64,000 nt of DNA, taken from contig JBAVVD010000060.1 of the NCBI GenBank assembly GCA_049697115.1, positions 3,301-67,300 of the forward strand, in the 5' to 3' direction. Numbering within the stretch: the first letter of the stretch is position 1; every line of letters starts with the position of its first letter. The notes below the pieces were generated by a model that did not search any database, was not told where the DNA came from, and saw nothing but the letters and a program-made list of their open reading frames with translations. Below, piece after piece: positions 9,300-56,810 of this stretch. The stretch is from Candidatus Aminicenantales bacterium (GTDB lineage Bacteria; Acidobacteriota; Aminicenantia; Aminicenantales; UBA4085). The position numbers and the translations under genes were made by a program.

Positions 9300-9359
9300 A
9301 GAGAGAGATATTTTACTTCATCTCTTTAAGGAATACACTATTACAATAAGCTGCTTCCT

Positions 9360-9553
9360 AATACGAATGCAATAAATGACGTGACAGAATATATAAGGCG
9401 CTGTGGCCGCCCTTAAGCCCCCGTAGCGGAGGGGGGGCCTATCGGCTTATCCGATGGGGGGAACCGACGGGACTGGTTCCCCGGGGTTCGGGGACTGAGG
9501 GCGGCCACAGCGCCGATCAAAGATTATAACCTTATTTATTGCATCCGTAATAG
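9360..9553. repeat. Palindromic ~194-bp intergenic element, copy 1 (arms 9360-9396 and 9515-9553; 16-bp IRs 9397-9412 and 9499-9514; core 9413-9498)
   Basis: Seen directly. IR ggcgctgtggccgccc / gggcggccacagcgcc, outer gcaataaat / atttattgc, and a core containing three GC-rich hairpins. Second copy at 56377-56569 has the core inverted. Confidence 0.85.
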
Positions 9554-9555
9554 CC

Positions 9556-10917
9556 TCAGGCGCCCGGCCCGCGTCTCTGTCTGGCGATATACTCATTGAC
9601 CGTGCGAACGGCAATGTTCGAGAGCCCTATAAGGCCGATGAGATTGCAAAAGGCCATCATGCCGTTGAACACATCGCCCACCGACCACGCGGTCTCCGCT
9701 CCCAGCGCGGACCCGACGAATATCATCAGGCAATACAGCCAGCGGAAGGGAGTCCTTGTTTTTTCGCCAATGAGATAGCAGAAGGAAATTTCTCCATAGT
9801 AGGGATTCGCGACAAGAGTCGAATATCCGAAAAGAAATGAAGAGACGGCCACAATCAGCCCTCCGGCTGCAGGCATGGCCGCGTTGAAGGCGTTCACAGC
9901 CATCTGGGTGCTCGTCCCCTCGGTCCAGGCGCCGGTCACAAGCACGGCGAGAGCGGTCAGCGTGCAGACCACGATCGTATCGATAAAAACATCCAGGGAG
10001 GCAATCATCCCCTGGCGCGCCGGTTCCCCTGTTTTGGCCGCCGCGTGAAACACGGCGGCTGTCCCTGTGCCCGCCTCATTGGAATACGCTCCTCTGGCCA
10101 ATCCGTAGCGGATGGCACCGGCAACGGTCGCGCCGACTACTCCCCCGCCCACGGCCGATGGTTTGAAAGCCCCGACAAAGATGAGGGAGAATGCCTGAGG
10201 AATCTGCGAGGCAAAGGCCAACACCGTGACCAGCGCTCCTCCGATATAGACAAGGACCATGAAGGGGCTCAAAAAGACCGTCACGCGGGCGATGGACTTG
10301 ATGCCGCCGATAATGACAAGCCAGACGAGCAGCGCCAGGCCGGCTCCTGTAATCCAGGGTTCGATTCCGACCTGGGTTTTGAGGGCCAGAGAGATGGAGT
10401 TGGACTGGATTAAAGTTGTCCCAAACAGGGCTTTACTGCCCATGAAAAATGCAAAAATTGCGGCGAGCCACGACAGGCCGAGGCCATTGCGGATATAATA
10501 CATCGGCCCGCCCAGGACAGTTCCGTCCGCGGCAAACTGCTTGAATTTCTGCCCGAGTGCCGCCTCGACAATCTTGGTGGCCATGCCGAAAAAGGCGGAC
10601 ATCCACATCCAGAACACGGCGCCCGGACCTCCCATGGCAATGGCCGTGCAGACTCCGGCAATGTTCCCGTTTCCGATGGTTGCGGCCAGTGAAGTGGTGA
10701 GGGCCTGGAAGGGCGATATATCCCCGCGGATGCCTTCCCTTTTTTCTCCATAGCCTCTTCCACCCAACACCAGCCGGACGGAAAGGCCGAATCCCCGGAA
10801 CTGGAGGAATCGAAGCCTGATAGTTAAATAAAAGCCGACGCCGAGGAGAAGCAAAACCATGTGTGGGCCCCAGACGACGGCCCCGAAGAATCGAATAATC
10901 CGGTCGAACAGCTCCAT
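9556..10917 (-). CDS. Alanine/glycine:cation symporter (AGCS family)
   Basis: 453 aa. N-terminus and TM pattern are typical of AGCS (FQALTTSLAATIGNGNIAGV..., GGPGAVFWMW). Confidence 0.8.
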   Translation of the reverse strand: MELFDRIIRFFGAVVWGPHMVLLLLGVGFYLTIRLRFLQFRGFGLSVRLVLGGRGYGEKREGIRGDISPFQALTTSLAATIGNGNIAGVCTAIAMGGPGAVFWMWMSAFFGMATKIVEAALGQKFKQFAADGTVLGGPMYYIRNGLGLSWLAAIFAFFMGSKALFGTTLIQSNSISLALKTQVGIEPWITGAGLALLVWLVIIGGIKSIARVTVFLSPFMVLVYIGGALVTVLAFASQIPQAFSLIFVGAFKPSAVGGGVVGATVAGAIRYGLARGAYSNEAGTGTAAVFHAAAKTGEPARQGMIASLDVFIDTIVVCTLTALAVLVTGAWTEGTSTQMAVNAFNAAMPAAGGLIVAVSSFLFGYSTLVANPYYGEISFCYLIGEKTRTPFRWLYCLMIFVGSALGAETAWSVGDVFNGMMAFCNLIGLIGLSNIAVRTVNEYIARQRRGPGA

Positions 10918-11624: not shown

Positions 11625-11710
11625 TGCCGAGGGCCGGACTTGAACCGGCACGGTTGTTGCCAACCGAGGGATTTTAAGTCCCTTGCGTCTACCAATTCCG
11701 CCACCCCGGC
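11625..11710 (-). tRNA. tRNA-Leu (anticodon UAA), 86 nt, type II with long variable arm
   Basis: Reverse complement GCCGGGGTGGCGGAATTGGTAGACGCAAGGGACTTAAAATCCCTCGGTTGGCAACAACCGTGCCGGTTCAAGTCCGGCCCTCGGCA folds as a cloverleaf with anticodon loop CTTAAAA. Confidence 0.9.
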
Positions 11711-39243: not shown

Positions 39244-39315
39244 GGGCCTATAGCTCAGCGGTAGAGCCACCGGCTCATAACCGGCAGGTCCCAGGTTCGA
39301 ATCCTGGTAGGCCCA
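39244..39315 (+). tRNA. tRNA with CAT anticodon (body resembles tRNA-Ile; likely tRNA-Ile2(k2CAU) or elongator Met)
   Basis: GGGCCTATAGCTCAGCGGTAGAGCCACCGGCTCATAACCGGCAGGTCCCAGGTTCGAATCCTGGTAGGCCCA. The acceptor stem GGGCCTA/TAGGCCC is Ile-like and the anticodon loop is CTCATAA. Confidence 0.85.
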
Positions 39316-51302: not shown

Positions 51303-52919
51303 ATGGCGAAAAAGACACTCAGACTCAGCGGTCTTATTGTCTGTGTCTTTCTTCTTCTTTCATTCCAAACTCAACTTCGATCGGACGATGACCTTCACCG
51401 GGTCTGGGCCGTGAAGGACTGCCGCATTATCTCTCTCTCCGGCCCGCCCATAGAAAAAGGCACCATTGTCATCCGCAATGGAATGATCGAGGCCGTCGGC
51501 CCAAATATATCCATCCCCCCTGACGCCGAAGTCATTGACGGAAGCACGCTCACCGCTTATCCGGGCCTGATCGACGGTCTCGGTCAGTACCTGCTTAAGC
51601 TGCCCGAGGAAAAGTTCGATATCACTAAAGTCTATACAGGAGAATTCACGGACAAGGACAAAGGCCTAACTCCCGAGCTCAATGCCTTCGACTTTATCGA
51701 CCTGGGGAAAGTATCTCTTGAAAAATACCACACTTTCGGATTCACGGCCGCTCATGTGCTTCCGGAGAAAGGAGTTCTCGCCGGCCAGGCTTCGTTTTTC
51801 TCGCTGAGCTCTTCGGAAAAAACCAAGGCCCTGCTTCTCAAGGATACATGCCTCGGCATTGGATTTTCTCCGGCTTCTTTCCTGGTCTATCCCAACTCTC
51901 TCATGGGCGTCGCGGCGCTCCTCCGCCAGACATTCCAAGATGCCTCTCATTATCGCCGGATCCAGTCCCTGTGGAAAAAGGAAATGAAAGGCATGGGCCG
52001 CTCCGAATACGATGCCCGTCTTGAGGTCATTTCGGATTATGTGACCGGAAAAAAATCCATCGTCTTTCTCTGCCGGAACCAGCACGACATCCGAAGAGCT
52101 TTGAGCATTGCCGATGAGTTTAATCTCAATTACTTTATCTGCGATCTCGGCAGTGAAGCGTCCGCTCTCATTCCCGAATTGAAGCGGGCCAAGGCCAGGG
52201 TCCTCTGCACAGTCGGATTTAAAGTGCCGGCCACGAGCATTCATTCTCAGCTCGGGAGAGAGGAACGAGAAAAAGCAGAGAAAGAAATCTACCCCAAGAA
52301 TCCGGTCAAACTGGCCGAGGCGGGAATTCCTTTTGTGTTCTCCTCCCTGGGAACGGACGCCCCCAAAAGTTTCCGGGAGGGAATCCTTCAAGCCATAGAA
52401 GCCGGTCTCTCCCAGGAAAAAGCCCTTGAAGCGTTGACCAAAAACGCCGCCGCTTTCTTTGGACTGGACCAAGCGCTGGGCACTATTGAGCCGGGGAAAA
52501 TTGCCAATCTGGCACTCGCCGAAGGAGACATCCTGGGCAAAGAGGCCAAGGTGACGCATATTTTTGCCGATGGACAGAAATTCGAGGTCAAAGCGGCCAA
52601 AGCCAAAGAAGGAGAAAAACCCGCTGTCAATATCACTGGAAAATGGGAACTCAACGTGGAAGGAGGAATCAAGCTGACCGTTGAATTCACGCAGGAAGAA
52701 GACTCTCTTTCCGGCCGGATGACCACTCCTTTCGGCGTCTTTGACTTTACCGGTGGAACCGTATCCGGAAAAGAAATCTATTTCGAGATGTCCCTGTCGA
52801 TCGGAGGACAGGAGCTCGACCTCTATTTTTCAGCCACCGTGGAAGAGGACACGATGAGAGGATCGGTCGTTCAGGGCACTTCCGGATCGGCGGAATTCAC
52901 CGGAAAACGCATTCCTTAG
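51303..52919 (+). CDS. Secreted amidohydrolase-family metal-dependent hydrolase (paralogue 1, with extra C-terminal beta-sandwich domain)
   Basis: Signal peptide. Amidohydrolase N-terminal beta-domain (IVIRNGMIEAVGPNISIPPDAEVIDGSTLTAYPGLID) and a C-terminal ~110-aa extension. Confidence 0.65.
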   Translation: MAKKTLRLSGLIVCVFLLLSFQTQLRSDDDLHRVWAVKDCRIISLSGPPIEKGTIVIRNGMIEAVGPNISIPPDAEVIDGSTLTAYPGLIDGLGQYLLKLPEEKFDITKVYTGEFTDKDKGLTPELNAFDFIDLGKVSLEKYHTFGFTAAHVLPEKGVLAGQASFFSLSSSEKTKALLLKDTCLGIGFSPASFLVYPNSLMGVAALLRQTFQDASHYRRIQSLWKKEMKGMGRSEYDARLEVISDYVTGKKSIVFLCRNQHDIRRALSIADEFNLNYFICDLGSEASALIPELKRAKARVLCTVGFKVPATSIHSQLGREEREKAEKEIYPKNPVKLAEAGIPFVFSSLGTDAPKSFREGILQAIEAGLSQEKALEALTKNAAAFFGLDQALGTIEPGKIANLALAEGDILGKEAKVTHIFADGQKFEVKAAKAKEGEKPAVNITGKWELNVEGGIKLTVEFTQEEDSLSGRMTTPFGVFDFTGGTVSGKEIYFEMSLSIGGQELDLYFSATVEEDTMRGSVVQGTSGSAEFTGKRIP

Positions 52920-52929
52920 GAGGAAAGCC

Positions 52930-54294
52930 ATGGAGTCTAGACTTAAAGTCACCATCATTATTGTTGTCCTTGTGCTGGGCAGTCTTTCGCCTTCCCTTGC
53001 GTCCGAGAAAAGCCTTCTGCTTAAAAACGGCAACATCATCCCGGTGAGCGGCGAAAACATCTTAAATGGGGACATCCTGATTCAGGGGAAAAAGATCGCC
53101 AGAATCGGTCACGATCTGACGGCGGGGCCGGATACGGAAGTCATTGACCTCAACGGAAAATGGGTCATTCCCGGAATCATCGACTCCCACTCCCATATTG
53201 CCGTCGAAGGCGGAGTGAATGAAATGGGCGACCTCATTACCGCCGAAGTGGACATTCAGGATGTGATCAATCCCGAAGACATCAATATCTTCTATGCCCT
53301 GACCGGAGGTGTGACCGCCGTCCACACCATGCACGGCTCGGCCAATCCGATCGGCGGCCGCGGCGTGGTTCTCAAGCTCCGCTGGGGAAAAAGCGCCAGT
53401 GAGATGATTTTTGAGGGCGCTCCCCTCACAAGCAAATGGGCGCTCGGTGAAAATCCGAAGCAGGCGAATTCTTCTAGACCCGGAAGAGCCCGCTATCCAA
53501 GATCAAGGATGGGTGTGGAAGCTTCCATCAGAAAGGAATTCGAAGAGGCCAGAGAATACATGCGGAAGTGGAATGAATACGCCCAAAAAGTCAGGGATCC
53601 CAAACAGACGAGAGGAAGAAGGCCCCTGCCCGTTCCGCCCAAAAAAGATTACCGTCTGGAAGCCATCGCTGATATACTGAGAGGCAAATACTGGGTTCGC
53701 TGCCACGCCTACCAGTCCGAGGAAATGCTTTCCATCATGCGTCTCTGTAAGGAATACGATGTGAAGCTTGTCTGCTTTGAGCACGGCCTGGAGGGTTATC
53801 GGATCACGAATGAACTGGTGAAATACGGCGTGGCCGTCTCAACCTTTGCCGATTTTTGGGCCTACAAGTGGGAGGCCTTTCAGACGATGCCCCATGCCGC
53901 GGCACTGATGGCCAAAAGAGGGGTTCTGGTAGCCCTGAATTCCGACGATGCGGAACGGATGCGCCGCCTCTTTAACGAAGCCGCTAAAACGGTCCGCTTC
54001 GGCGGCCTGTCGGAGCGTGAAGCACTGAAGACGATCACCCTCAATCCGGCCATCATCTTGGGCATTGACAAACAAACAGGAACGATCGAAGTCGGGAAAG
54101 ACGCCGACCTGGCCGTCTTCAGCCGCCATCCTCTGGACCCCTACACCATCTGCGAGATAACGCTGGTGGACGGGAAAGTCTATTTTGACCGCACAAAATA
54201 CCTTGAGGACAGAAAACGCGCTGAGGAACAGAAAAAGAAACCAGAGGAGGACGTCCAAAAGCCCAGGGAAAAGAAAAACGGAGCGGAGGTCTGA
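52930..54294 (+). CDS. Secreted amidohydrolase-family hydrolase (paralogue 2)
   Basis: Signal peptide and a metal-binding HSH motif (PGIIDSHSHIAVEGG). Confidence 0.7.
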   Translation: MESRLKVTIIIVVLVLGSLSPSLASEKSLLLKNGNIIPVSGENILNGDILIQGKKIARIGHDLTAGPDTEVIDLNGKWVIPGIIDSHSHIAVEGGVNEMGDLITAEVDIQDVINPEDINIFYALTGGVTAVHTMHGSANPIGGRGVVLKLRWGKSASEMIFEGAPLTSKWALGENPKQANSSRPGRARYPRSRMGVEASIRKEFEEAREYMRKWNEYAQKVRDPKQTRGRRPLPVPPKKDYRLEAIADILRGKYWVRCHAYQSEEMLSIMRLCKEYDVKLVCFEHGLEGYRITNELVKYGVAVSTFADFWAYKWEAFQTMPHAAALMAKRGVLVALNSDDAERMRRLFNEAAKTVRFGGLSEREALKTITLNPAIILGIDKQTGTIEVGKDADLAVFSRHPLDPYTICEITLVDGKVYFDRTKYLEDRKRAEEQKKKPEEDVQKPREKKNGAEV

Positions 54295-54296
54295 CC

Positions 54297-55589
54297 ATGA
54301 AAAAAGTCAAAATTCTGACTGCAGCCATAGGACTTCTGGCCATCTGGCTGGCCGGCCAGGGATATCCCCAAAAAATCCTGATCAAGAACGCCGTCTTCAT
54401 TCCCGTTGTCGGCGAGGACCTGGAACGCGGAAGCCTGCTTATTGAAGACGGCAAAATCGCCGCTATCGGCCGGGATATTCCGGTTCCGGAAGGGACGGAA
54501 ATCATCGACGCTTCAGGGATGTTTGTCTACCCCGGATTCATAGACGCTTTCACTCATTTCGGCCTCCTGGAAATCGGAGCCATCGGTAGTACGGTTGACG
54601 TCCGCGAGATGGGAAAAGAAAATCCCGAACTTCGCGTGGCCTGGGCCATCAATCCCCAGTCGATCCATTTCGCCACTTCCCGTATCAACGGCACGACCAC
54701 AGCCGTGGTTGCCCCCCAAGGGGGGACTTTTCCCGGCTTGACGGCTCTCATCAAGATGGACGGTTGGACATTCCCTGAAATGAGAGTCCAAGAGGTAGCC
54801 ACCTCAATGATCAACTTCCCCATGACTCCCCGTCCACCGAAGGAAGGGGGCACTCAACAGGCGGAAACCAAACAGGACGTCACCTCCAAACTGGTGGAAA
54901 AAATCAAAGAATATCTCGACGAAGCCCGACGCTATCTCCAGCTCAAAAAACTGGCTTCGGAAAATCCGGCAATGACTCCCCCTGCGCCCAACCCAAAGTA
55001 TGAGGCATTAGCTCCTGTGCTGGATGGAAGCCTTCCGGTGATTGTCTCTGTGGAAAAATCAAGGGACATCGAACTGGCATTGAAATTCATAAAGGAGCAG
55101 AAACTCAAGGCCATTTTCCGCGGGTGCGCCCAGGGCTTCAAGGTGGCTGATCAAATCCAGAAAGCAGGGATTCCCGTCATCATTGATAATCTCTACACGA
55201 ATCCGTCCGAGCCTGAGGACGGCTATGACGCTCCTTACCGGAACGTGGCAGAACTGGCCAAGGCCGGAGTACTGATCTGCTTTTCTTCTGGAGAAGATCC
55301 CTCCACCGGCAAAGACCTGCCCTATCAAGCGGCTAAAGCAGTGGCCTTTGGGCTCGACCGCACAGAAGCGATCAAGGCTCTGACCATCAATCCGGCCCGT
55401 ATTTTCGGCCTTGCATCGAGGCTGGGCAGTCTGGAGCCGGGTAAGGACGCGGACCTGTTTATCACCACCGGAGATCCGCTCGACTTCAAATCGGAAGTGA
55501 AATATCTTTTCATCAACGGAAAACCCATCGACCTCGACAACTGGTGGGAGACTCTGTACGACAAATGGAAATCGCGGCCGATTAAATAA
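54297..55589 (+). CDS. Secreted amidohydrolase-family hydrolase (paralogue 3)
   Basis: Signal peptide. VYPGFIDAFTHFGL and the amidohydrolase fold, with the C-terminal GKDADLFI motif shared with paralogue 2 (GKDADLAVF). Confidence 0.7.
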   Translation: MKKVKILTAAIGLLAIWLAGQGYPQKILIKNAVFIPVVGEDLERGSLLIEDGKIAAIGRDIPVPEGTEIIDASGMFVYPGFIDAFTHFGLLEIGAIGSTVDVREMGKENPELRVAWAINPQSIHFATSRINGTTTAVVAPQGGTFPGLTALIKMDGWTFPEMRVQEVATSMINFPMTPRPPKEGGTQQAETKQDVTSKLVEKIKEYLDEARRYLQLKKLASENPAMTPPAPNPKYEALAPVLDGSLPVIVSVEKSRDIELALKFIKEQKLKAIFRGCAQGFKVADQIQKAGIPVIIDNLYTNPSEPEDGYDAPYRNVAELAKAGVLICFSSGEDPSTGKDLPYQAAKAVAFGLDRTEAIKALTINPARIFGLASRLGSLEPGKDADLFITTGDPLDFKSEVKYLFINGKPIDLDNWWETLYDKWKSRPIK

Positions 55590-55718: not shown

Positions 55719-56306
55719 ATGCCTATAAAAATTTTCCTCCCCTTTGGAGTGGCGTTTTTTCTATTGGCCATTCCCTTTCTGAGCGCGGAGGCCGCAGAAA
55801 ATCCCAAAGTTCTTCTTCAGACGACAAAGGGCGACATCACTATCGAGCTTTACCAAGATAAGGCCCCCATCACGGTGAAGAACCTTCTCTCTTATGTGGA
55901 TAAAAAATTCTACGACGGGACCATTTTCCACAGAGTGATTAAAGGATTCATGATTCAAGGCGGAGGGCTTACGGCGGACTTTGTTGAAAAACTCGCTGAT
56001 TCTCCCATCAAAAATGAAGCCGCCAACGGATTAAAAAACCTGAGGGGAACGATCGCCATGGCCCGGATGCCGGAAATCCACAGCGCCACCTGCCAGTTTT
56101 TCATCAATCATGTGGACAACGCCTATCTGGACCATCGCAGCAATACGCCTGAGGGGTACGGCTACGCCGTATTTGGTAAGATCATAAAGGGGCTGGAAGT
56201 GGTCGACGCCATAGCCGCATCCCCCACAGGGACAATCAAAGGAAACGCCGATGCTCCCCGGCAGACCATCACCATCCTCTCAGTGAAAAGGTTGGAAAAC
56301 AAGTGA
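55719..56306 (+). CDS. ppiA: Peptidyl-prolyl cis-trans isomerase, cyclophilin type (secreted)
   Basis: Signal peptide and the cyclophilin core (FHRVIKGFMIQGGG...ARMPEIHSATCQFFIN). Confidence 0.85.
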   Translation: MPIKIFLPFGVAFFLLAIPFLSAEAAENPKVLLQTTKGDITIELYQDKAPITVKNLLSYVDKKFYDGTIFHRVIKGFMIQGGGLTADFVEKLADSPIKNEAANGLKNLRGTIAMARMPEIHSATCQFFINHVDNAYLDHRSNTPEGYGYAVFGKIIKGLEVVDAIAASPTGTIKGNADAPRQTITILSVKRLENK

Positions 56307-56376
56307 GCTGAAACAGCTCCGGAAGCCCCTCCAAGTATTTCATTCGCACCGCGGTGAATCCGCTGGGATTCCAATT

Positions 56377-56569
56377 AATACGAACGCAATAAATGACGTG
56401 ACAAAATATATACGGCGCTGGGGCCGCCCTCAACCCCCGAACCCCGGGGAACCAGTCCCGTCGGTTCCCCCTTCGGATAAGCCGATGGGGGCCCCCTCCG
56501 CTACAGTGGCTTGAGGGCGGCCTCAGCGCCGATCAAAGATTGTCACTTTATTTATTGCCTCCGTAATAG
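56377..56569. repeat. Palindromic ~193-bp intergenic element, copy 2 (IRs 56414-56429 and 56515-56530; core 56430-56514, inverted relative to copy 1)
   Basis: Arms match copy 1 in the same orientation (aatacgaaNgcaataaatgacgtgacaNaatatata... / ...gatcaaagattNtNacNttatttattgcNtccgtaatag). The core is the reverse complement of copy 1's core (~90% identity). Confidence 0.85.
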
Positions 56570-56600: not shown

Positions 56601-56810
56601 ATGTCCTGGAAAGCTTTTTTTGACTGGGTTTTTTCTTTTGTTCATCTCGCCCTCCTTCTCGGAATCCTTGTCTATGCCGGGGTGGCACTGATCCAGGCAA
56701 ACATCGCCCGTTTCGGGGTGGTCTTCGGATGCCTTATTGGATATTACGTTCTTGTTCTTCACCCGGCTGTGAAAAAGGAAATAGAAAGAAAAAGAAAAAA
56801 AGATAAATGA
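56601..56810 (+). CDS. Small hypothetical membrane protein (69 aa)
   Basis: Two TM helices and a KR-rich tail. Overlaps the start of the M23 peptidase gene by 4 nt. Confidence 0.35.
   Translation: MSWKAFFDWVFSFVHLALLLGILVYAGVALIQANIARFGVVFGCLIGYYVLVLHPAVKKEIERKRKKDK

Follow-up and report, generated by a model that had tools for sequence, protein, structure and literature searches.

Nested repeat elements with a flipped structured core in Candidatus Aminicenantales

A 64,000-nt stretch of contig JBAVVD010000060.1 from a Candidatus Aminicenantales bacterium (assembly GCA_049697115.1, positions 3,301 to 67,300), hereafter called the window, carries two copies of a palindromic intergenic element of about 196 bp whose central segment, the core, is inverted between the copies while the flanking arms keep their orientation. 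The question raised by this locus is what kind of element would have its centre turned around between unchanged ends. [quoted passage not shown] Our analysis points to the last of these: each copy is probably a non-autonomous mobile repeat of nested, two-layer design, in which the core was flipped by an occasional recombination-type event and is not a switch. The copies belong to a family of small mobile repeats that is common in Aminicenantes and for which we found no earlier description.

Two copies in the window

Each copy has five segments: a 39-nt arm, a 16-bp repeat (GGCGCTGNGGCCGCCC), the core (85-86 nt), that repeat's complement and a second 39-nt arm. P1 to P4 below are the helices of the core fold.

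Copy 1
9358-9553, + strand: whole element, 196 bp, with the G-rich structured strand on +
9358-9396, + strand: left arm, terminal inverted repeat CTAATACGAATGCAATAAAT followed by arm-specific GACGTGACAGAATATATAA
9397-9412, + strand: left 16-bp inverted repeat, 5' strand of P1
9413-9498, + strand: core, 86 nt
9417-9421 paired with 9483-9487: P2
9422-9437, + strand: junction strand CGUAGCGGAGGGGGGG
9438-9458: P3 hairpin
9459-9466 paired with 9474-9481: P4, loop ACGGGAC
9490-9493: second G-run
9499-9514, + strand: right 16-bp inverted repeat, 3' strand of P1
9515-9553, + strand: right arm, arm-specific GATCAAAGATTATAACC followed by terminal inverted repeat TTATTTATTGCATCCGTAATAG

Copy 2
56375-56569, - strand: whole element, 195 bp, with the G-rich structured strand on -
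56375-56413, + strand: left arm, 35/39 identical to that of copy 1
56414-56429: left inverted repeat GGCGCTGGGGCCGCCC
56430-56514, - strand: core, 85 nt, reverse complement of the copy 1 core (76/86)
56447-56470, - strand: P4
about 56471-56491, - strand: P3
about 56492-56505, - strand: junction strand
56506-56510 paired with 56441-56445, - strand: P2
56515-56530: right inverted repeat GGGCGGCCTCAGCGCC
56531-56569, + strand: right arm, 35/39 identical to that of copy 1

Both copies are real, although each starts two bases further left than first annotated (at 9358 and 56375), which adds a CTAATA/TTAATA end. The near-perfect inverted repeats stand as described: the pattern GGCGCTGNGGCCGCCC has four exact matches in the window against 0.15 expected by chance, and a fifth match with two mismatches, at 2880-2895, is an unrelated site. 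The arms do keep their + strand orientation, in copy 2 despite its G-rich strand being the - strand, since left and right arms each agree at 35/39 in direct comparison, as against 29/39 (left) and 27/39 (right) when compared as swapped partners; within the window the two arms match each other as inverted repeats at 28-29/39. The cores are reverse complements of each other at the roughly 90% identity first reported, with 76/86 matches in that orientation versus 50/86 directly and 56 in the best of 500 shuffles, both loci having been read directly. Scored with a covariance model of the relatives, copy 1 reaches 132 bits (+ strand) and copy 2 reaches 114 bits (- strand), against only 25-27 bits on the wrong strands; the model revealed no copy in the window beyond these two. 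Arms, P1 and core of the two copies are about equally diverged (88-90% identical), and the folding z-scores of the whole elements against shuffles are -8.3 and -8.0.

A contig of an independent Logan assembly (L119, run SRR27973968) agrees with the window at every base from the right arm of copy 2, across its right inverted repeat, to 65 nt inside the core. Faulty assembly is therefore not the source of the orientation of copy 2. Logan contigs from this sample stop at the element: L001 ends at the outer edge of copy 1, and L119 starts inside the conserved core of copy 2. These breaks at both copies suggest that further copies exist in that genome. Each P1 half is, in addition, partly palindromic (window 9395-9413 and 56412-56427; also L016 and relatives), for example GGGCGGC-GCTTAG-GCCGCCC, and each P1 strand could thus be predicted to form a small hairpin of its own.

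Size and range of the family

Relatives were collected from a species-representative genome collection through an exact 21-mer of P4, the third hairpin (GGAACCGACGGGACTGGTTCC); the labels L001-L119 denote the collected loci and contigs that carry the element or were compared for it. This 21-mer has exactly two matches in the window, on opposite strands. The search for additional copies proposed at the outset is amply rewarded, with more than 117 listed stretches carrying the 21-mer in at least about 42 assemblies, and with 105 copies matched by the covariance model in 762 kb of loci. In all, the family counts more than 120 copies in about 40 genomes. Most of the listed matches come from Candidatus Aminicenantes, Saccharicenans or bins labelled 'uncultured Eubacteriales' or 'Clostridiales'; also among them are one Acidobacteriota, one Desulfaltia and four Patescibacteria (Yanofskybacteria, Woykebacteria and two others). 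The sources are mostly metagenome bins, and some of these taxonomic labels are doubtful. In several genomes there are 5-10 or more copies, spread over different contigs.

The viral collection lacks the 21-mer, a BLAST comparison of the core with phage and plasmid collections gave no match, and a metagenome scan with a 21-mer from the window's own arm gave zero matches. Exact-protein look-ups of the flanking genes place the organism of the window in one sample only (SRR27973968). Literature searches by core motif strings and keywords returned no description of the family.

The core is a covarying three-way junction

The inner module of about 105 nt comprises the stem P1, an internal loop and a three-way junction of P2, P3 and P4. 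P1 is long and variable in sequence, P2 has 5-6 bp, P3 is a variable hairpin that tolerates large insertions, and P4 is GGGGAACCG/UGGUUCCCC with the loop ACGGGAC; this loop and the junction strand R-UAGCGGA-R-GGGG (UAGCGGARGGGG) are nearly invariant. The reading of the core as three GC-rich hairpins has to be amended, as the first of them (gcccccGTAGCGGAggggggc) competes with the long-range helix P2, which covariation supports.

The covariance model suggested as a check was built from 21 copies and gave strong covariation. In the resulting alignment, which is model-fitted and so leans towards structure, 93% of the cells are paired and 29/38 pairs have changes on both sides; the covariation score is 0.446, versus 0.134 for shuffles and about 0.07 for slid-partner controls. 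P4 is uninformative in this respect, because the copies were selected through it. G-U outnumbers A-C by 207:71 in P1-P3 and by 44:4 in P3 alone, these pair counts being cells and not independent events, and the G-rich strand is the more stably folded one in 100/107 copies. The wobble bias and the better folding of the G-rich strand imply that the selected fold is that of one strand, as RNA or as single-stranded DNA. The alternative of a structured nucleic-acid family is borne out, and the covariation is as strong as that behind many accepted RNA families.

In Rfam 15, a gathering-threshold search of the window gave two tRNAs only, and no match fell on the element even at E <= 10. A resemblance to SAM-I was rejected (17.8 bits at E = 0.11, where the gathering score is 44), as its junction topology is different and the window copy is unmatched; the alignment in question spans the Patescibacteria copy L017:1194-1282 end to end, is weak and was judged to be due to chance. 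Hammerhead and twister, whose junctions were compared by eye only, gave no match. Our best guess is that the core acts as a cis-acting fold that would serve the element's own propagation (mobilisation) or RNA processing, rather than the regulation of host genes.

Low-GC Patescibacteria harbour several copies that lack any outer shell and have the same junction strand and P4, with different P1, P2 and P3 (for instance P3 = GCGAAGC). The core is thus conserved across phyla, in Aminicenantes and Patescibacteria. The Patescibacteria copies are the following.

L017:1185-1293
L029:5805-5910
L039:3128-3230
L087:4050-4156
L113:2624-2730
L099:286-440

The core has flipped repeatedly

Among 22 scorable copies outside the window with the same outer shell type (shell A), 18 have the majority state and 4 are flipped, and three further flipped copies were recognised by eye; arm and core therefore do not always invert together as a unit, an outcome that the initial annotation had left open. 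L033 and L093 are flipped relative to L002, L026, L030, L031, L048 and L111, with one flipped/unflipped pair (L031 vs L093) on a single closed chromosome, OY969586. Flips are also found in L073, relative to L007, L010, L041, L046, L066, L069 and L108, in the whole L068/L088/L094 lineage and, in other shells, in L095 (second shell type) and probably in L027/L118. They recur in at least four subfamilies and in roughly a fifth of copies, and the flipped copies cluster by sublineage instead of approaching 50:50.

The breakpoints are not the same in every event. Those of L033/L093 fall within a perfect repeat of 24 bp and those of L073 within the inner 9-11 bp of a bulged P1, in both cases inside the longest perfect repeat; the L088/L068 breakpoints are outside P1, at the arm/P1 junction. 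P1 sequences are unrelated within one genome, and the metagenome-assembled genome CAZIDN01 has at least five unrelated ones.

The outer shell and its mobility

Eighteen of the 20 complete shell A copies measure 195-201 bp, and the remaining two (218 and 309 bp) hold internal insertions. The shell ends in CTAATAC...GTATTAG and has imperfect terminal inverted repeats (ATACRAAYGCAATAAAT), with the terminal repeat CTAATACRAACGCAATAAAT at both ends with at most 4 mismatches. Nearly all 20 copies are flanked by Y-TA...TA-R, where the outermost base varies independently (left Y, right R). This is the pattern that TA duplication at Y-TA-R sites would give, the duplication being deduced from the flanks; the TA could instead belong to the repeat. 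Excision of copy 1 would leave CTAG two bases past the symporter stop codon, and that of copy 2 would leave TTAG. Within 860 kb of loci, CTAATAC-type ends always enclose a core.

Mobility is demonstrated by an insertion opposite an empty site. In L105 the element lies between a stop codon and the start of dinB, and the orthologous junction in L078 is uninterrupted (GTATTAGTG) and reads TTAG. Beside 49 orthologues of the symporter gene in metagenomes no element was found; these orthologues are about 70% identical, show no synteny with the first locus and supplied no empty site for it. Contigs of an independent assembly break at the element. With its small size, absence of coding capacity, terminal repeats, dispersed copies and the L105/L078 polymorphism, the element fits the MITE-like alternative named at the outset. 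The whole element is predicted to fold as a rod made of a terminal-repeat helix, an internal loop of about 14 by 14 nt, P1 and the junction, in which the internal loop would contain exactly the arm-specific sequences, such as GACGTGACAGAATATATAA of copy 1.

The same core is carried by other shells. A second type has the ends GGAAGCATCTC / GTAAGCATCTC, with a variant that has a different P1; a long-armed type was found in L055, L091 and L100; and the Patescibacteria copies and some Aminicenantes copies have no shell. Setting P4 aside, cores are 94-96% identical between elements whose outer P1 and arms cannot be aligned, so that the core with the inner P1 behaves as a cassette shared among shells. 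Saccharicenans genomes have tandem arrays of the core, the L065 array having a 144-bp period (x 2.9) and the L035 array a 106-bp one (x 2.7), and each of the arrays below holding 3-4 co-oriented units.

L065:5800-6370
L035:3039-3350
L038:26-270

The closing stem is complete only in the last unit of an array. Three Saccharicenans genomes share synteny at the array locus, where it is placed between housekeeping genes that converge on it (fucose isomerase-like and GH113); the L035 array follows a GGDEF gene. A different MITE of about 125 bp, with the ends TTGGAAGGGGG..CCCCCTTCCAA, sits inside the P3 loop in three genomes (L020:4395-4525 on the - strand, L042 and L107).

Several other ideas about the shell were tried and discarded. 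An 8-bp target duplication for the second shell type is represented by a direct repeat (CCTGACAC) at L106:5720-5920 only, the other copies having none. P1 as a captured terminator stem fails on the lack of U-tracts and on the L105 insertion, which includes P1. A lagging-strand mode of single-strand transposition finds no GC-skew bias (42:49), and a relic of IS200/IS605-type single-strand elements (PATE) is at odds with the terminal inverted repeats, the same skew counts and the opposed window copies in one replichore.

Gene context and orientation

The genes at both loci are as first described. The first locus has a Na/Ala symporter gene followed by those of a bPH_4 protein and a UvrD-like helicase, and the second has a cyclophilin gene followed by a 69-aa open reading frame (ORF) and an M23 peptidase gene. 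Copy 1 is separated by 2 nt from the stop codon that ends the symporter gene (9556-10917, - strand), and the start of the bPH gene (9269, - strand) follows about 90 bp downstream of it; copy 2 lies 69 bp past the cyclophilin gene (55719-56306, + strand) and 32 bp ahead of the 69-aa ORF (56601-56810, + strand). At both loci the G-rich strand is antisense to the flanking genes. The equal orientation of the cores relative to transcription accordingly holds for the two window copies, but amounts to a coin-toss coincidence, as the family is mixed (21 antisense, 13 sense, 17 convergent and 14 divergent). Core orientation relative to local GC skew is 42:49, without bias; GC skew is negative throughout the window (1-64000), which therefore lies within one replichore, yet its two cores oppose each other. 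No consistent neighbouring gene was found.

The absence of a recombinase nearby is upheld, since none of the 50 window ORFs of at least 90 aa encodes a recombinase or transposase. The elements contain no gene-like ORF and are overlapped only by chance frames of 50-55 aa. The promoter scan gave no match in copy 1 and one weak match in the flipped segment of copy 2, whose direction is opposite to that of the gene downstream; neither within the core nor next to it was a convincing promoter or terminator detected, including on the G-rich strand. Outward promoters in the arms (TTGTCA-N17-TATTAG), spotted by eye, were not accepted by the promoter scanner. Neither strand has a T-run after P1 or after the whole element, and only weak half-P1 hairpins were flagged; the GC-rich hairpin with a U-tract directly behind it that marks an intrinsic terminator is lacking on either strand.

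The window content is otherwise housekeeping (dnaG-rpoD, gyrB-gyrA, lpxC, pyk, the mla operon and mraZ-mraW-ftsL-ftsI), with two tRNA genes at 11625-11710 (- strand) and 39244-39315 (+ strand). Three consecutive paralogous amidohydrolase genes (538, 454 and 430 aa) occupy 51303-55589, just upstream of the cyclophilin gene and copy 2.

Origin of the flipped core

We propose, as the probable explanation, a nested MITE whose core flips occasionally. The outer shell of about 196 bp would have inserted at Y-TA-R sites, and selection on the inner module would act on the fold of the G-rich strand. The inverted repeats that bracket the core would allow it to flip with the arms untouched. For the flip we infer a recombination mechanism. 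The P1 halves could occasionally recombine within one molecule or allow template switching during replication; by another route, a different copy could convert the core in antiparallel orientation, or the core cassette could be inserted anew. The flipped form would then persist by inheritance or spread by transposition, and copies 1 and 2 would be two states of one young subfamily.

Several points weigh against this explanation. The flip in the window is apparent from comparing copies at different loci, not from one locus in place. The right end of the L105 insertion is degraded, and the TA duplication is read from flanks only; an autonomous transposase with matching ends (ATACRAACGCAATAAAT) did not turn up in the window or among the ORFs examined in the loci. 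In the L088/L068 lineage it is the unit of P1 plus core that is inverted relative to the arms, and with a repeat of only about 5 bp at the junctions, recombination between inverted repeats explains these cases poorly. A purely DNA-level transposon leaves unexplained both the strand-specific wobble bias and the 94-96% core identity between unrelated shells. All copies were, moreover, ascertained by the exact P4 21-mer, and most come from metagenome-assembled genomes.

A bolder proposal is that the core of about 105 nt is a cross-phylum module of structured RNA or single-stranded DNA and itself the unit of mobility, nesting at the tip of unrelated palindromic shells in either orientation and able to amplify into tandem arrays. 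We consider this possible, if doubtful; if true, the core would represent either mobile elements of a new class, defined through recognition of the fold, or a new class of catalytic or protein-binding RNA that hitch-hikes on MITEs.

More narrowly, the core module (the inner 8-9 bp of P1, GGCYGYCC, plus the junction) may be a mobile cassette that enters the centre of pre-existing palindromic elements, by insertion or by copying and in either orientation, in which case the window copies would differ by independent or repeated cassette insertion and not by in-place inversion. One core does occur in at least four shell types and in shell-less copies, and L032 (shell A) and L095 (shell B), though unrelated in outer P1 and arms, share not only the 94-96% core identity outside P4 but also a nearly identical P3, a hairpin that is elsewhere variable. 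The Yanofskybacteria repeated unit stops exactly at the outer edge of P1, in the L088/L068 lineage P1 and core are inverted together, the breakpoints falling where arm and P1 meet, and the small unrelated MITE in the P3 loop of L020 shows that nesting occurs in the family. Against this, no 'empty' shell without a core was seen in 860 kb; the breakpoint in L073 lies inside P1, and the equal divergence of the window parts is a better fit to a flip within one lineage than to a fresh insertion. An enzyme for such movement was not found, and none is known. We judge the cassette rather unlikely as the source of the flip.

Alternatively, the core may be a structured RNA with a function for the host (a small RNA gene, protein-binding decoy, processing or stability element, ribozyme or aptamer), with incidental arms and an orientation that would matter only for the strand transcribed. 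The strong covariation, the strand-specific wobble bias and the invariant single-stranded motifs are what such an RNA would have, tetraloops of RNA type, GAAA and CUUG for instance, occur among the P3 loops, synteny of the array locus extends over three Saccharicenans genomes, and the motif is kept across two phyla. GGA is found in both conserved single-stranded motifs, as it is in CsrA-type binding sites, which is a lead only. Against these features stand the lack of a detected promoter or terminator for the G-rich strand, the mixed orientation relative to neighbouring genes, the want of a consistent neighbour, the antisense position of both window copies in their operons and the failure to match Rfam beyond the sub-threshold SAM-I score given above. 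A host RNA would also by itself leave the flip unexplained, and we judge it an unlikely account.

A programmed, recombinase-driven inversion, that is a phase-variable switch with the 16-bp repeats as crossover sites and an invertase encoded elsewhere in the genome, is very unlikely. Its attractions are the near-perfect inverted repeats around a segment of about 86 bp, the recurrence of flips in several subfamilies and, in some of these, a P1 half that is internally palindromic like a recombinase core site (GGGCGGC-GCTTAG-GCCGCCC); in Bacteroides, global invertases are indeed encoded far from their targets. The variable P1 sequences, unrelated among copies of one genome, and the breakpoints that vary between events, together with the lack of any recombinase within 64 kb and the random orientation relative to genes, nevertheless argue against a dedicated invertase or phase switch. 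Flipped copies are a lineage-clustered minority, the core lacks a convincing promoter, and the independent assembly of the same sample has this same single orientation where the right inverted repeat joins the core; strand-specific structural covariation, besides, already accounts for the perfection of P1. The site-specific invertase first put forward is accordingly not supported.

That the flipped core is an assembly or transcription artefact, as a repetitive element at which short-read contigs break might lead one to fear, is hardly credible, given that L119 matches copy 2 exactly from the right arm, across the inverted repeat, to 65 nt inside the core, that a 16-bp repeat is far below read length, and that both configurations occur in many unrelated assemblies, closed chromosomes such as OY969586 among them.

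Comparison with known systems

By analogy, the nearest known system would be the Correia elements of Neisseria (CREE/NEMIS), which make a TA target duplication. Like them, the present element is small, intergenic and multicopy, with terminal inverted repeats, a conserved core, variant ends, a hairpin fold and inversion. Published work describes CREE as intergenic, multicopy elements of 69-151 bp with terminal inverted repeats, a characteristic core and variant ends (PMC2649163, PMC5039591), their transcripts as a long, RNase III-sensitive hairpin (PMC2649163, PMC5039591, PMC10969869), and inversion without a change of locus is reported as well (review PMC10969869, which cites Elbeyioglu et al. 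2016). Unlike CREE, to which it has no sequence similarity, our element belongs to a different host phylum, is most conserved in its core instead of its ends, and shows no evident outward promoter or IHF site; its core is a covarying three-way junction with a flanking inverted repeat of its own, common to unrelated shells and also found solitary or arrayed.

The RAYT-mobilised REP/BIME/REPIN sequences are likewise multicopy, intergenic, palindromic units defined by structure, which occur singly, in inverted pairs, in arrays and in mosaics, have one strand's fold selected and are entered by other mobile elements. REPs are, in contrast, simple hairpins of 20-40 nt with a 5' GTAG, whereas the core here has about 105 nt and a branched three-way junction, the GTAG position reads ATAG or CTAG in many copies, and a replication-strand bias is lacking. 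A RAYT gene was not seen, though no search aimed at one was made. Invertons (fimS, hin and the Mpi targets of Bacteroides) also have a short segment between inverted repeats in both orientations. Unlike the P1 sequences, which are unrelated within one genome, their repeats share a recombinase-specific consensus, and they carry a promoter, of which no convincing example was found in the cores. Invertons are mixed within a population at a fixed locus; here, one independent contig agrees with the window.

Minute inversions of hairpin loops in chloroplast non-coding DNA were reportedly described by Kelchner and Wendel in 1996. The flips seen here would resemble these and the QMITE2 inversion of Coxiella in being recurrent, enzyme-free events between short inverted repeats that are homoplasious across lineages, and differ in that the flipped segment is a highly conserved structured module, in contrast to loops that are neutral spacers. 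Coxiella QMITE2 itself shows inversion at a fixed locus between strains (PMC5896051). The ERIC/IRU elements of enterobacteria (ERIC about 127 bp) share with ours the imperfect palindrome in transcribed intergenic regions, and a review attributes to ERIC orientation-dependent effects on mRNA through RNase cleavage (PMC10969869); they have no similarity in sequence or architecture, and ERIC is without a nested invertible core.

Meaning of the finding

What sets the core apart from known systems is its reversed conservation, the strand-specific three-way junction, the sharing of one core across shells, the solitary and arrayed forms and the cross-phylum range. The conservation pattern is the opposite of that of a normal MITE, in that the ends vary between subfamilies and the centre is almost invariant. 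The finding reveals a large unannotated repeat family in poorly studied phyla, which is a practical nuisance because assemblies break at the element, and annotators should not take a flipped core between inverted repeats for a phase switch without population-level evidence. Given its strong covariation without an Rfam entry, in two phyla and in three contexts (nested, solitary and tandem), the core is a good candidate for a new functional RNA or for mobility of a new, structure-directed kind.

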